Notes: generated from the letters alone by a model not told the origin. 64,000 bases of DNA from an uncultured Eubacteriales bacterium (GCA_934476315.1 CAKSNQ010000002.1:4943-68942), one strand, 5' to 3'; shown: positions 36,890-42,363, counted from the first letter of the stretch. Numbers and translations: made by a program.

Positions 36890-37465
36890 ATGTACAAGAG
36901 CAATTACAGCACATTCGGCAAGATTGCCGCTATCATCCTCGCCGCACTGGCGATCATCCTCGCCCTGTCCTGGATCGGAAACAAGTCGGACGGTTTCAAG
37001 GAAATGAACCCCACCAAGTGGGAGTACGTCGCCCGCAACGAAAAGAACCTCATCAAAGTAGAAAACATTGCCAAGCCGGAATACGACGAAGGCATGGGCT
37101 TTTCCGTGACGGTCGATGATTACGGCGTTGTCCGCATCGACGGCACGAACATGTCCGAGACCGCCGCCGAGGTCAAGCTCGGCAAGGTCACGCTTCCCAA
37201 GGGTACCTACACCTGCACCACCGGCAAGGACGGCAAGGGCGACACCAACCGCTTCAGTGCCAACATCTACGGTCGCGCCCTCGTCTCCGGCGTGCCTGCG
37301 GGCGACCCGTTCTACGCGGATTTCGGCGGCGTTCTGACGCTCTCCGAGGACACCGAGATCGAGCTTTGCATCTCCATTCCCGCAGGTGCGAAATTCACGG
37401 GCGGCTATAAGCTGTACCCCGCAATCGTCCCGGGTACCGAGGCAGTGAGCTTCTTCGGCAAGTAA
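36890..37465 (+). CDS. N-terminally membrane-anchored protein, extracytoplasmic beta-rich domain
   Basis: Start MYKSNYSTFGK after AAAAGGAG. TM IAAIILAALAIILALSWI. 191 aa. Confidence 0.65.
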   Translation: MYKSNYSTFGKIAAIILAALAIILALSWIGNKSDGFKEMNPTKWEYVARNEKNLIKVENIAKPEYDEGMGFSVTVDDYGVVRIDGTNMSETAAEVKLGKVTLPKGTYTCTTGKDGKGDTNRFSANIYGRALVSGVPAGDPFYADFGGVLTLSEDTEIELCISIPAGAKFTGGYKLYPAIVPGTEAVSFFGK

Positions 37466-37529
37466 TCCGAACCGAAACGGACAAGCAATCTCCCCCGGAG
37501 TCATTCCGGGGGAATGAAAGGAGAAAAAC

Positions 37530-38690
37530 ATGAATAACAAAAAGATTCGGACAGTCTGTATCGCGGTCGCCGCGCTGATGCTCGGCGCGATGGCGCTGGG
37601 CGCGTTGTCGTCGCTTTTGCACCGCGACCCGTCCGTCGTCCTGCCCGACTCCAAGCAGGAGATCCCTGCCGATCCGGAAGCGCCGGGCGATACCTCCGCG
37701 ACCATTCACGAGAGGTATTCTTTTGTCGTCGGGACGCCGAGCGAGCAGAACTATCTGACCGCGGATTCATCGGCATACAACGAAAAGACCAGCGTCCGTT
37801 ATGCCGACAAAGCCAAGAGCTTTGTCTACAAGTATTCGCTCAAAGCCTCCGGAGGGATTCGTCAGATCACCTGGACGTCCGATTTGCACGGACAAGTGCT
37901 GCTGGAGGTTTCCACCGACGGCAAGACCTGGGCGGAGGTTTACCGCTATGAGGGTAGCGCGTCGGACCATGGACTGACGAGAATCAAGCGTGCCTTTGAC
38001 CTGACCAAGTTGATCGACACCGAGACTGTCCGTACCATCTGGCTCCGCATCAGCGACAGCTACACGGAATCGGGCTTCGGCGGTGCGATATCGGCAAATG
38101 AATGGGTCGTCCTGGATGTCGCGTATACGCGCGACGGACAGGAGCTCACCCCCGAGAACTTCCCCATCGTCGTGTGTGAGTGCGACGACCTGACCGGCTT
38201 TTCGGGACACCCGCTGAACGTCGAAACCGGTCATTCCCTCACGGGCGGCGTCTCAATCGGCGGAACGATCAGCGGCGCGTTTGCGACCTCCGGGGATGCA
38301 TATCTGATGCAGTATATCTCCGACGAAACCAAGGACGTGAGCAGCATGCGGTATTTCAACTTCTACCTGTACGTGTCGGACGCTTCGAAGCTCAACGGCA
38401 CGGACTTTGCGCTGGAGCTCGGCTCCGCGGAAGGAGTAGACCATTGCGAGAGCGAGGGACGCTTTGTGTTCAGCAACCTGCACGACGGCTGGAACCTCAT
38501 GCAGATTCCGCTCTCGGCGCTGGTAGCAACGCAGAACGACAGCGCCACCTGTGAGTCCGAGACCTGCCGGGATGGTCTGAATCCCTCGGCATGGAAGCGC
38601 TTCCGACTGTTCAGCCGGAACGCCATGGACGCAGGCGACGGACTCACGATCCTGATTGACCATGTGGGATTTTCGGATGTTTTGTATTAA
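37530..38690 (+). CDS. membrane-anchored/secreted protein with two CBM/jelly-roll-like domains
   Basis: 386 aa; N-terminal TM/signal VCIAVAALMLGAMALGAL. LLEVSTDGKTWAEVYRY and GWNLMQIPLSAL...ILIDHVGF resemble carbohydrate-binding-module patterns. Confidence 0.6.
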   Translation: MNNKKIRTVCIAVAALMLGAMALGALSSLLHRDPSVVLPDSKQEIPADPEAPGDTSATIHERYSFVVGTPSEQNYLTADSSAYNEKTSVRYADKAKSFVYKYSLKASGGIRQITWTSDLHGQVLLEVSTDGKTWAEVYRYEGSASDHGLTRIKRAFDLTKLIDTETVRTIWLRISDSYTESGFGGAISANEWVVLDVAYTRDGQELTPENFPIVVCECDDLTGFSGHPLNVETGHSLTGGVSIGGTISGAFATSGDAYLMQYISDETKDVSSMRYFNFYLYVSDASKLNGTDFALELGSAEGVDHCESEGRFVFSNLHDGWNLMQIPLSALVATQNDSATCESETCRDGLNPSAWKRFRLFSRNAMDAGDGLTILIDHVGFSDVLY

Positions 38691-38705
38691 GAGAGGAGTA
38701 AGAAA

Positions 38706-40280: not shown

Positions 40281-40290
40281 GTGAAAGCAG

Positions 40291-42246
40291 GTGGCACACA
40301 TGAGCAAGAGAATCATTTCCATCATCCTGCTTGCCCTGACGCTCCTGTCCGCCTTGATCCCCTGTGTCGGTGCAACCGACACGGGGGATAGCCCCTATAC
40401 CTCGGAGGTCGCGCGGGAGCTGTCGGGATCAACGATCAACGGCAAAGCGTTCAATTTCGCGGATTACCCGAAAGATCGGTTCAATACCGAAGTCAGTGTT
40501 CTTTTCATCAATGAGGTTGGCTTCCGCGCCGGCTCCGACCAGTCGGACTGGGCGCTGTACCTCTACCTGTACAACCCGTCCGGACAAGCCTATGACTTCA
40601 CCACAGGCAAATGCGCCGTCAATATGGGGTATGAGTGGTCGGACACGGGCGCAGTCACAGCCTACACCAAATTCGCCCTGGAGCTGGTCAGCGCGTCCGA
40701 CGAGGAGGGCATGGAAAACGTGTTCCTCAAAGTCCGCGTCAAGGATAAGACCATCGGCGCCCGTACCTTTGCCAAGCGTCTGTCGGGTAAAAGCACCCGC
40801 ATTTATGCGTTCTCCGAAGTCGAGCTTCTGATTCCGGGCAAAGTCAATGCCACGAGCTTTTCGTTCGCCCGCCGCTACGAGGTCACGGGCTATGACAAGG
40901 GCTACGGTACATATGCGTCACAGAATAACAAGACGGTTAAGGACACCGGGCATAACGTGATTCAGTGCAAGCCGGTACAAACGTACTGGCGATCGGACAC
41001 AAGTTCCGGCGGAAAGAATCACCGCTGGCAGGTCAACGCGGTATACTTCTCGGTGCCGAAAGCGTATTTCAAGGAGTATGACAGCCTGGACGCCGTCAAG
41101 TGTGAATGGTTCGAAGCGAAGACACAGCCGATCATTGCTACGGATGATGTGACGCTGTATACCAAACTTAAACCGTGGGTTGGCTGGCTGATTGGAGGAG
41201 ATTACAACAACGGATCTACCGGAAGACGGTGGACTACGGATATTCCATATGGCTTGTGGACATCCAGTCAGTATTCCGTCAAGATGTCAGCCGGGCATGT
41301 TAATGCTTTTACGTATGGGTATAACGTGAGAAGAAATGCGGGCGTGTTAACATCGCCACTTCTTGAGATTCCACCCAACATCAACCCTCTTGGTTGGCTT
41401 CTTCGATCAGAAGCGGGCGAGATCAAACTGAATCAGGAATTTGTCAGCAAGGACACCATGCTGGAATATTACGCCAACATGGTGAAAGAGAAAGGTGAAG
41501 CCGCCGCACGTCAACTTCTTTTGACGAATACCGTGGACGAAGGTCGGAAATACGGAAAGCAGGAAGTAACCATCCATTTCGACGATACTTACCTTCTCGA
41601 GAATTACGACAGTAACCATAGTTGGTTTCAGAAGTTTTTAGACTATAACATTTTCAATGGTGGGTGGAAGTATGGTACCGGCTATACCACAAAAACCGGC
41701 GAAACCTACGAAAACTTCCAGCCGATCAATATCATCGACTCTTACGAGGATATCGCCGCTACCCCCGCCCAGCTCGCTGAAAGCCTGTATTTCGCCACTG
41801 AGGAGGAAGCCCGTAAATTTAAGGAATACGCCACGGACGCCCTCAAACGCGACGAATACGTCGTCCTGCTCCGCTACGCTGAGCGCGATTATTACAGCGA
41901 GGTCATGGAGGTCACACCCGCCATTTCCGGCACCGCTGTGGTCGCCGTGCAGACGGTATTTTTAGACTTTGACATTATCGAGCTGGACTTCAAAAAGGAC
42001 GCGGAAACGATCGTCGTCCCCGTGACGTCCAGCCCCACCAACGGCATTGGCGGCATCAAAGCGCCGCAGGTGGACGACACCAACCCGGGCAAATACCTCG
42101 GCGAGGCAGTCAAAGACGCCATGAATACCGGAAAGGACCTTGTCCGCCGCATCGTCGGCATTGTCCTGATCGTCCTCGGGGTGCTGGTGCTCCTGAAGGT
42201 CGTGCAGATCGGTGTCAGACTGTTCCGGGATAACCGGGACTGGTGA
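40291..42246 (+). CDS. type-I-like surface protein (signal peptide + C-terminal TM anchor)
   Basis: 651 aa; signal IISIILLALTLLSALIPCVGA; C-terminal IVGIVLIVLGVLVLLKVV followed by RLFRDNRDW. Confidence 0.7.
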   Translation: MAHMSKRIISIILLALTLLSALIPCVGATDTGDSPYTSEVARELSGSTINGKAFNFADYPKDRFNTEVSVLFINEVGFRAGSDQSDWALYLYLYNPSGQAYDFTTGKCAVNMGYEWSDTGAVTAYTKFALELVSASDEEGMENVFLKVRVKDKTIGARTFAKRLSGKSTRIYAFSEVELLIPGKVNATSFSFARRYEVTGYDKGYGTYASQNNKTVKDTGHNVIQCKPVQTYWRSDTSSGGKNHRWQVNAVYFSVPKAYFKEYDSLDAVKCEWFEAKTQPIIATDDVTLYTKLKPWVGWLIGGDYNNGSTGRRWTTDIPYGLWTSSQYSVKMSAGHVNAFTYGYNVRRNAGVLTSPLLEIPPNINPLGWLLRSEAGEIKLNQEFVSKDTMLEYYANMVKEKGEAAARQLLLTNTVDEGRKYGKQEVTIHFDDTYLLENYDSNHSWFQKFLDYNIFNGGWKYGTGYTTKTGETYENFQPINIIDSYEDIAATPAQLAESLYFATEEEARKFKEYATDALKRDEYVVLLRYAERDYYSEVMEVTPAISGTAVVAVQTVFLDFDIIELDFKKDAETIVVPVTSSPTNGIGGIKAPQVDDTNPGKYLGEAVKDAMNTGKDLVRRIVGIVLIVLGVLVLLKVVQIGVRLFRDNRDW

Positions 42247-42261
42247 TCGGAGGAGCGACCC

Positions 42262-42363
42262 ATGAACAAAAAAAGAATGTGGAGATACGGCGTGCGTGTT
42301 CTCTTCGGCGCCCTTACGCTTTACGCGCTGGGGTACGTCGTCTACACGTTTACCGTGATCTGA
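42262..42363 (+). CDS. 33-aa single-TM peptide
   Basis: Not in the track (too short). GGAGGAG RBS 7 nt upstream. MNKKRMWRYGVRVLFGALTLYALGYVVYTFTVI. Confidence 0.45.
   Translation: MNKKRMWRYGVRVLFGALTLYALGYVVYTFTVI

Follow-up and report, generated by a model that had tools for sequence, protein, structure and literature searches.

We analyzed a 64,000-nucleotide (nt) stretch of DNA from an uncultured Eubacteriales bacterium (here called the window), in which five consecutive genes between positions 36890 and 42363 of the + strand code for membrane-anchored proteins and form part of an integrated element of 20,255 bp. The first gene (36890..37465), whose ATG lies just 3′ of an AAGGAG ribosome-binding site, encodes a 191-amino-acid (aa) protein with an N-terminal anchor (hydrophobic residues 12-30). 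It is followed by genes for a 386-aa surface protein (37530..38690), also with an N-terminal anchor (hydrophobic residues 8-26), and for a 524-aa protein that combines an anchor (hydrophobic residues 9-27) with a G/T linker and Cys/His (CxxC) repeats (38706..40280). The fourth gene (40291..42246) has a GTG start codon and codes for a 651-aa type-I membrane protein, i.e., one with a signal peptide and a C-terminal transmembrane (TM) segment, and the fifth (42262..42363) codes for a 33-aa peptide with a basic N terminus and one TM segment according to its hydropathy. The gaps between these genes measure 64, 15, 10, and 15 nt, and 22 nt more separate the last one from the gene of an 841-aa P-loop NTPase. 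The junctions described as tight or overlapping in a first-pass annotation of the sequence are thus tight, with gaps of 10 to 64 nt, but no two of the five genes overlap.

The hydropathy profiles agreed with the anchors and TM segments that had been assigned to all five proteins. In the 651-aa protein, they placed N-terminal residues 1-19 ahead of the sequence VGA|T and a TM segment at residues 621-639, and both terminal helices were also present in the AlphaFold2 (AF2) model, in line with the proposed type-I topology. The linker of the 524-aa protein is encoded by a 15-nt tandem repeat (4.7 copies, positions 38832-38902), and the protein contains 44 Cys and 24 His residues, with 15 CxxC motifs in units of approximately 55 aa, as expected from its initial description. 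By contrast, the carbohydrate-binding module (CBM) or jelly-roll domains proposed for the 386-aa protein were not confirmed, with no family matches, and neither was the label of beta domain given to the 191-aa protein. No match to Pfam, PHROGs, or NCBIfam was obtained for any of the five proteins. The impression that none of them resembles capsid or tail proteins was therefore upheld in these libraries and, for the 651-aa protein, also in PDB sequence searches and in Foldseek searches of PDB and BFVD.

A metagenome-assembled genome (MAG), GCA_963643615.1 (locus L008), carries a copy of the element that is 97-99% identical and served as the reference for dN/dS calculations. The ratios were between 0.05 and 0.38 across the five genes, the lowest value being that of the 191-aa gene (0.05). 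The 524-aa gene is the most variable of the block, with 87% amino acid identity and a dN/dS of 0.38. This indicates that the five open reading frames (ORFs) are real genes constrained by purifying selection.

The repeat and linker architecture of the large anchored proteins, together with the gut origin of the hosts, would suit a secretion or surface system of benefit to the host, such as an adhesin or a nutrient-binding display together with an export ATPase of its own, carried on a mobile island. However, neither sortase or LPXTG signals, nor S-layer or CBM domains were detected in family-library scans, the ATPase encoded downstream has no ABC or secretion-ATPase signature, and the module is always linked to genes for a rolling-circle Rep, a repressor, and a recombinase. 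We consider such a host system very improbable.

Conservation and distribution of the module

Gene order was compared by clustering the ORFs of 89 related loci. The colinear arrangement that emerged comprises genes for small proteins, a 116-aa protein, two N-anchored proteins of approximately 360 aa, an N-anchored 197-aa protein, a protein with a signal peptide and a C-terminal TM segment (473 or approximately 680 aa), a TM peptide of 32 to 62 aa, the ATPase, and an HUH Rep. The 191-aa protein of the window is 37% identical to a 190-aa protein of locus L002, and its N-terminal anchor and (N/D)GF motif match the 197-aa family found in 55 loci (hhalign P = 2.4e-5). The 651-aa protein is a member of the approximately 680-aa family, itself a homologue of the 473-aa family (fam4 and fam10, 49 + 29 loci; hhalign E = 1e-32). 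Homologues of the 33-aa peptide, 32 to 62 aa long, are encoded directly 5′ of the ATPase gene in 48 loci (hhalign P = 5e-5).

Three loci, L001, L002, and L003, share with the window the genes for the 61-, 191-, 386- (C-terminal half), 524-, 651-, 33-, and 841-aa proteins, in that order. Only residues 213-383 of the 386-aa protein are common to the L002 relative (30% identity), and L002 holds two paralogue-like genes corresponding to the 524-aa protein. The 386-aa protein showed no relation to the approximately 360-aa family encoded at the same place in the L005 clade, and other clades have unrelated anchored proteins in place of the 386- and 524-aa proteins. The conserved core thus consists of the 191-like protein, the 651-like protein, the mini-peptide, and the ATPase, with the 386- and 524-aa proteins as variable surface components. 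Synteny across 89 loci argues that the block is not variable cargo. The first-pass annotation had offered surface-display cargo as an alternative to a virus module; conserved synteny speaks against it for the core genes, and it could still apply to the 386- and 524-aa proteins.

An exhaustive profile search with the ATPase family yielded 948 cluster representatives (50% identity) at E ≤ 1e-3, of which 519 at E ≤ 1e-30; a word-indexed search gave 7 homologues only. Family members are typically 700 to 750 aa long. Scanning a single genome for each species yielded 460 ATPase loci. Among the 80 loci listed, nearly all come from MAGs of Clostridia, mostly of gut or fecal origin, with up to three copies per genome. 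The named taxa among them are Christensenellaceae, Eubacteriales, Gallimonas, and Subdoligranulum, and the records name hosts of the Christensenellaceae and Oscillospiraceae types. Our literature searches returned no paper on plasmavirus-like elements in Clostridia, on MT835493, or describing this group.

The conserved neighbor families include regulators, recombinases, a WYL protein, and PcfJ/PcfK-like proteins, and none is a virion or type IV secretion system (T4SS) family. The PcfJ-like (7e-26) and PcfK-like + MutS_I genes are found in approximately 20 loci of the L005 clade, 6 to 7 kb 3′ of the ATPase gene and on the opposite strand (e.g., L048:16443-17762 and L042:7414-8418).

Similarities of the ATPase and the 651-aa protein to viral proteins

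The 841-aa membrane P-loop NTPase (42386..44911, + strand) is composed of a basic coiled coil, four to five TM helices, and a nucleotide-binding domain with the Walker A motif GTMGKGKT. Residues K414, E603, D655, and R658 are invariant in an alignment of 48 relatives. No model of Pfam, PHROGs, or NCBIfam matched the protein, and neither the 48 ATPases nor the conserved neighbors matched FtsK_SpoIIIE, T4SS-DNA_transf, TrwB, VirB4, VirB6, or relaxase families. When the insertion that follows Walker A was removed, one of five constructs matched Zot (E = 0.008). Alignment of the family with the Zot profile using hhalign gave a score of 35.9 (P = 5e-4), the maximum over 40 column shuffles being 23.3, but this score depended on the Walker A region. 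The same comparison with M13 pI alone yielded nothing.

A weak but specific similarity was found to ORF2 (338 aa) of the plectrovirus SpV1-R8A2B. Searching approximately 2,300 local proteins with this sequence using phmmer returned 30 matches, all of them in the ATPase family (best E = 8.5e-4), and hhalign of the family, from the last TM segments onward, with SpV1 ORF2 gave P = 7.6e-5 over 88 columns spanning the TM-TM-Walker A region. SpV1 ORF2 in turn aligned with the Zot profile through the Walker A, Walker B, and RH…Q…R motifs (hhalign P = 4.3e-5). By eye, two N-terminal TM helices directly precede its P loop, although a hydropathy scan showed one peak. The family signature LKMxRH…DEQRP…REL likewise resembles ARHFG…TAQRE…IRQL of SpV1 ORF2 by eye, which we take as a lead only. 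PDB sequence searches with the profiles of the ATPase and 651-aa families returned only P-loop noise. Judging from these alignments, the 841-aa protein is probably a very divergent morphogenesis NTPase of the pI/Zot type with plectrovirus-like topology, its membrane domain being N-terminal, and we regard it as a candidate morphogenesis or extrusion ATPase.

Modeling of the 651-aa protein with AF2 was confident (pLDDT 79.7, pTM 0.79); in the model, a mostly-beta ectodomain is flanked by a helix at the N terminus and by a long TM helix at the C terminus. Foldseek had been proposed in the first-pass annotation as a means to compare the block proteins with pIII, pVI, pVIII, pleolipovirus VP4, and adhesins; run on this model against the whole PDB and BFVD libraries, it gave nothing significant, and no known fusion, spike, capsid, or tail-fiber fold was matched. 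The top BFVD match was ORF1 of the Acholeplasma plasmavirus L2 (E = 2.5e-3), over the full length and with a TM-score of only 0.13. The same protein came up in sequence searches: phmmer with L2 ORF1 returned 11 matches at E < 1, all in the 651-aa family (best E = 0.024), and the hidden Markov model (HMM) of that family ranked ORF1 first in the L2 proteome (E = 0.004). Two colinear motifs are common to ORF1 and the family; one of them, FETDGIT, is identical and lies immediately ahead of the C-terminal TM segment.

The order of L2 genes is ORF1, with C-terminal TM segments, ORF2 (81 aa, two TM segments), and ORF3, with a hydrophobic N terminus and Walker A and B motifs. SpV1 ORF2 and L2 ORF3 share a VWWLW…P-loop junction (BLASTP E = 0.046). 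Comparison of the other L2 ORFs with the module families yielded nothing, and searches of a phage collection and IMG/VR with L2 ORF1 and ORF3 retrieved L2 itself only. We consider a true evolutionary link to Plasmaviridae possible, though less likely than not.

L2 ORF3 (L093 2278-3216, annotated as hypothetical) contains a Walker A motif GGGKS, a Walker B motif LILDEF, and the pattern LRHQG…SQ, and by eye it looks like a Zot-type NTPase. A greedy alignment to the Zot profile placed these motifs sensibly without reaching significance (P = 0.07).

The integrated element and its replication genes

The element is inserted at a tRNA-Leu(GAG) gene (25956..26040, + strand; ARAGORN, Rfam tRNA). It is bounded by direct repeats of 181 nt, attL (26016..26196), which starts inside the 3′ end of the tRNA gene, and attR (46271..46451), which are 94% identical and spaced by 20,255 bp. 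The left end codes on the − strand for a tyrosine integrase (26201..27193; Pfam Phage_integrase, 9.6e-20, and Phage_int_SAM_3) and for a cI/LexA-type repressor with helix-turn-helix (HTH) and S24 peptidase domains (28218..28922; Pfam Peptidase_S24, 1.2e-26, and HTH_3); a Cro-like gene is also present. A hairpin with 100% complementary 16-nt arms at 30600..30656, a candidate origin or operator, precedes the gene for a rolling-circle Rep (30767..31981, + strand) composed of an HUH endonuclease and a superfamily 3 (SF3) helicase. Its HUH motif HHIHMVLE and Walker A motif GGSGSGKS can be read in the translation, and it matched Pfam RNA_helicase (2.7e-6) and PDB entry 7LAR (5.9e-10), which is annotated as an ATP-dependent helicase Rep and which we take to be a circovirus Rep.

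Related loci swap their replication modules, and all of these are of rolling-circle types, namely the CRESS-like (circovirus-like) Rep of the window, PF23343, and a weak Rep_trans-like signal in L006. The L005 clade carries PF23343 REP_ORF2-G2P (1.6e-10, above the gathering score). The 552-aa protein encoded by L006 is 39% identical to a 512-aa protein that L002 encodes, and it weakly matches a PHROG replication-initiation family. As far as the sequences go, the replication modules point to single-stranded DNA (ssDNA)-type replicons. Inoviruses and pleolipoviruses typically exchange their rolling-circle initiators while keeping a constant morphogenesis module.

This gene content could also be that of an integrative element that moves from cell to cell, in which the ATPase would act as a single-protein DNA translocase, comparable to TraB of actinomycete integrative and conjugative elements (AICEs) or to a TcpA-like coupling protein, Rep would double as the relaxase, and the anchored proteins would mediate contact or spreading. 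AICEs have a similar inventory, with an integrase, a repressor, a rolling-circle Rep, one membrane NTPase, several small or anchored membrane proteins, and integration into tRNA genes. In the same direction point the PcfJ-like and PcfK-like genes a few kilobases 3′ in the L005 clade and the weak resemblance of the L006 initiator to the PHROG replication-initiation family; if this initiator is Rep_trans-like, its family would be one that includes MobT relaxases. Such an element would also be expected to occur in many copies per genome and to be nearly missing from IMG/VR, as is the case here. However, there is no FtsK, VirD4, VirB4, or relaxase signal in the 48 ATPases or their neighbors, the only protein to which the ATPase is specifically similar comes from a plectrovirus, and the Rep types are those of ssDNA viruses. 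To our knowledge, transfer of the AICE type is a feature of mycelial actinomycetes and not of Clostridia. Cell-to-cell transfer is therefore an unlikely function of the element.

No capsid, terminase, portal, tail, lysin, or T4SS families were found with Pfam, PHROGs, and NCBIfam in the scanned proteins of the element or in conserved neighbor families, and the hallmarks of Caudoviricetes (HK97-fold capsid, terminase, portal, and tail proteins) had no family match in the same set. This lack of structural hallmark genes, in combination with an integrase, a repressor, and a replication module of its own, would also be expected of a satellite of the phage-inducible chromosomal island (PICI) type, or of a defective remnant, that uses the capsids of a helper and for which the membrane block is conversion, exclusion, or surface-remodeling cargo. 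The lineage specificity of the 386- and 524-aa proteins fits such a satellite, and the IME1 elements of Dehalococcoides were initially read as satellites or PICIs (bioRxiv 10.64898/2026.09.15.751708). Nevertheless, the block and the ATPase gene make up the most conserved colinear part, approximately 8 of 20 kb, and are under purifying selection, the opposite of what accessory cargo would show. In addition, terS, capsid-remodeling, or helper-interference genes were not detected, and no consistent helper prophage was seen, though helper prophages were not looked for. A satellite or remnant hence appears quite unlikely.

Between the Rep gene and the block, the + strand codes for an 87-aa protein (34729..34992), a putative ssDNA-binding protein in view of its size and composition only. 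It had no family matches and no similarity to the equivalent 116-aa family of the relatives. The next gene (34961..35146) encodes a 61-aa zinc-ribbon protein (weak Pfam match), which is kept in L002 and L003 (blastp, 42% identity, E = 2e-8). Three basic proteins of 158, 99, and 180 aa follow (35311..36723; isoelectric points 9.8 to 10.6, dN/dS from approximately 0 to 0.42) and are candidate DNA-condensing or DNA-coating proteins. Downstream of the 841-aa gene lies approximately 1.3 kb of repeat-rich noncoding DNA, which includes tandem repeats of 136/273 bp (45091..45615; TRF) that are absent from L008.

Several further observations concern these regions. Ahead of the integrase ORF (330 aa), and overlapping it in a different frame, is an 87-aa ORF (27048-27311, − strand), which contains RQLPSGSYNIQVYVGKDENGKR and resembles an arm-type N-terminal DNA-binding domain, so that region 26201-27311 could hold a frameshifted or split integrase. 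A gene for a 286-aa protein with an N-terminal TM segment and a long coiled coil (27329-28189, − strand) sits between the integrase and repressor genes, a position typical of lysogeny-expressed moron or exclusion genes. Right after the Rep gene is a PAPS-reductase-like gene (31996-33165; phrog_424, 5e-22, with no Pfam match). In the distant relative L005, Rep is followed by a 571-aa protein, PAPS-reductase/DndC-like from its sequence, and then by a 1,202-aa gene. These PAPS-reductase-like genes may be DNA-modification cargo.

In comparison with L008, a DUF6273 gene at 33617-34234 is missing from the latter, and the 87-aa gene at 34729-34992 is only 49% identical (dS 1.26) where identity is 93-100% elsewhere, which suggests replacement of a cassette. 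L008 has a HicA/HicB pair 3′ of the ATPase gene and lacks the 136/273-bp repeats. In the window, those repeats are bracketed by two copies of a perfect 26-nt palindrome, CAAATTCGCAAGCGCTTGCGAATTTG, one right after the ATPase stop codon (44913-44938) and the other near attR (46081-46106).

The intergenic region 5′ of the block contains, within 36690-36836, a perfect sigma-70 promoter on the − strand (TTGACA-17-TATAAT, 12/12) that is directed leftward, with an intrinsic terminator on the same strand at 36728-36703, approximately 75 nt past the promoter. The resulting transcript of approximately 110 nt is predicted to form four hairpins (minimum free energy, −47.6 kcal/mol; z = −4.95) and has no Rfam match. 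This transcript, which overlaps the 180-aa gene at its 3′ end, is a candidate small or antisense RNA.

Proposed function and comparison with known systems

On balance, we lean toward the view that the block is the coat, adsorption, and extrusion module of an uncharacterized lineage of temperate, non-lytic viruses of filamentous type or pleomorphic, whose closest analogues are the filamentous ssDNA phages (Tubulavirales, plectrovirus-like) and possibly plasmavirus L2. The viral reading of the first-pass annotation thus gains from the conserved colinear core, from its location in a temperate rolling-circle element without recognized capsid, tail, lysis, or conjugation genes, and from the faint links to SpV1 and L2, and it is held back by the weakness of all the homology links. 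Chronic capsid-less viruses whose particles are assembled at the membrane are known; what would be new is the lineage itself, the way its ATPase is built, and how large its set of surface proteins is.

Beyond what the gene content provides, we infer the following course of events. Release of the cI/LexA-type switch would induce the element, and the integrase would excise it as a 20.3-kb circle, to be amplified by the rolling-circle Rep. Small basic proteins may coat the genome while the five membrane proteins gather in the cytoplasmic membrane. There, the 841-aa ATPase and the 33-aa peptide, a candidate small coat or assembly subunit, would drive assembly of the nucleoprotein and its export through the membrane without lysis. 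The 651-aa protein, a candidate adsorption or terminal-cap protein, and the 191-aa protein would be conserved terminal or adsorption components, and the variable 386-aa and Cys-repeat 524-aa proteins might serve as host-recognition surface proteins.

A number of observations weigh against a virus. The evidence for the family is genomic: IMG/VR held two ATPase-family loci only, a check for terminal overlaps revealed no circular contigs in the set of fetched loci, and the sole GenBank record labeled as phage is UNVERIFIED and unannotated. Single-protein scans of IMG/VR for close relatives also returned nothing. All similarities of the core proteins to known viruses are weak. Neither the native ATPase nor its 48 relatives matched Pfam Zot, and the hhalign signal with the Zot profile fell to noise without the Walker A region, so that direct membership of the Zot family is not claimed. 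The AF2 model of the ATPase, built from 8 sequences, was unusable (pLDDT 44), and the 651-aa model had no PDB match at E ≤ 0.001 in Foldseek (best E = 0.013, TM-score < 0.13). L2 ORF3 had no significant similarity to the ATPase family. The 87-aa protein and the 116-aa family had no PDB match, and no ssDNA-binding protein was confirmed. The hosts are presumably walled monoderms, for which budding of enveloped vesicles is difficult to envision. A classical filamentous phage would not be expected to have a genome of this size, the additional large proteins, or a mini-peptide whose charge polarity is reversed, and 20 kb exceeds the genomes of characterized filamentous phages (approximately 4 to 11 kb; bioRxiv 10.64898/2026.09.15.751708).

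A bolder proposal is that capsid-less, chronically released viruses of walled gut Clostridia form a large, previously unrecognized lineage whose morphogenesis module (type-I protein, mini-TM peptide, and Zot-like ATPase with N-terminal membrane embedding) shares ancestry with those of Plectroviridae and Plasmaviridae; we regard it as doubtful at present. If such a module is shared, the loci described here would be the first relatives of L2 outside Acholeplasma, and enveloped and rod-shaped phages of Mollicutes would be tied to a common stock of Bacillota viruses. The possible tie to plectroviruses and L2 bears on the origin of Plasmaviridae.

Should these elements be non-lytic viruses, a common class of viruses of gut Clostridia is being missed, with 460 loci in species-representative genomes versus 2 in IMG/VR; having no hallmark gene, the elements are largely absent from this major viral catalogue. 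No curated family of Pfam, PHROGs, or NCBIfam covers any core protein. The ATPase family, with 948 clusters and no Pfam, NCBIfam, or PHROG model, represents a ready marker for finding such elements, and the type-I and Cys-repeat surface proteins could be new host-recognition or display scaffolds.

Among known systems, inoviruses have been detected by a pI-like ATPase (Zot domain, FtsK-HerA superfamily), single-TM proteins of 30 to 90 aa, and mostly uncharacterized genes (Roux et al., PMC6813254), and the element shows the latter two features in its 33-aa single-TM protein and its largely uncharacterized gene set (PMC6813254). Like Plectroviridae and Inoviridae (SpV1-R8A2B, M13, and Propionibacterium phage B5), it has a non-lytic set of genes without those of an icosahedral capsid, and a rolling-circle Rep, with PF23343 REP_ORF2-G2P in its relatives. 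The signal peptide and C-terminal TM segment of the 651-aa protein give it the topology of pIII and SpV1 ORF1, the TM-TM-Walker A junction of the ATPase resembles that of SpV1 ORF2, and the order of type-I protein, small TM protein, and ATPase mirrors gIII-gVI-gI of M13. In contrast, the element is 20,255 bp long, versus approximately 4.5 to 8.3 kb for the filamentous phage genomes fetched (small circular ssDNA genomes of approximately 4 to 12 kb being expected for such phages), and its ATPase is larger (700 to 840 aa), with a multi-TM N-terminal domain, an insertion of approximately 150 aa after Walker A, and no native Pfam Zot match. It also has three extra large anchored proteins, and no coat or ssDNA-binding homology was found. 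The basic end of M13 pVIII is opposite to that of the mini-peptide. HMMs of the module families had no matches among the ORFs of M13, B5, Pf3, and L2, and the similarity of SpV1 ORF1 to the anchored families was not significant. Enterocloster inoviruses, with their canonical Zot pI, are elements of another kind.

Pleolipoviridae are similar in concept: they combine a type-I spike with small membrane proteins and an NTPase, and their replication modules, among them a rolling-circle Rep, are interchangeable. Unlike the element, they have archaeal hosts, and no sequence link to them was found. PDB holds structures of pleolipovirus spikes, and the 651-aa model matched no VP4/VP5-type spike fold there in the whole-library Foldseek search, which included no targeted comparison.

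With Plasmaviridae, the element shares a temperate lifestyle, an integrase, and the lack of recognized capsid genes, and L2-like prophages also integrate into tRNA genes (PMC12662186). ORF1, ORF2, and ORF3 of L2 mirror the arrangement of the 651-, 33-, and 841-aa genes, and among the BFVD folds ORF1 comes closest to the 651-aa model, but these similarities are all below the usual significance. L2 replicates bidirectionally from two DnaA-box origins with the host replisome and infects the wall-less Acholeplasma (PMC12662186), whereas the element has a rolling-circle Rep and its relatives occur mainly in genomes of Clostridia.

The IME1 elements of Dehalococcoides are reported to be restricted to Chloroflexota and have metavirome and electron microscopy support, whereas the element described here is known from genes alone. 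They are integrated elements of approximately 20 to 28 kb that have no tailed-phage hallmarks and carry a conserved module for a pI-like ATPase and several proteins with TM segments or signal peptides; abundant in viral fractions in which transmission electron microscopy showed filaments, they have been proposed to represent a new non-lytic, likely filamentous lineage (bioRxiv 10.64898/2026.09.15.751708). Likened by description only, IME1 is the closest published analogue in kind of the element.

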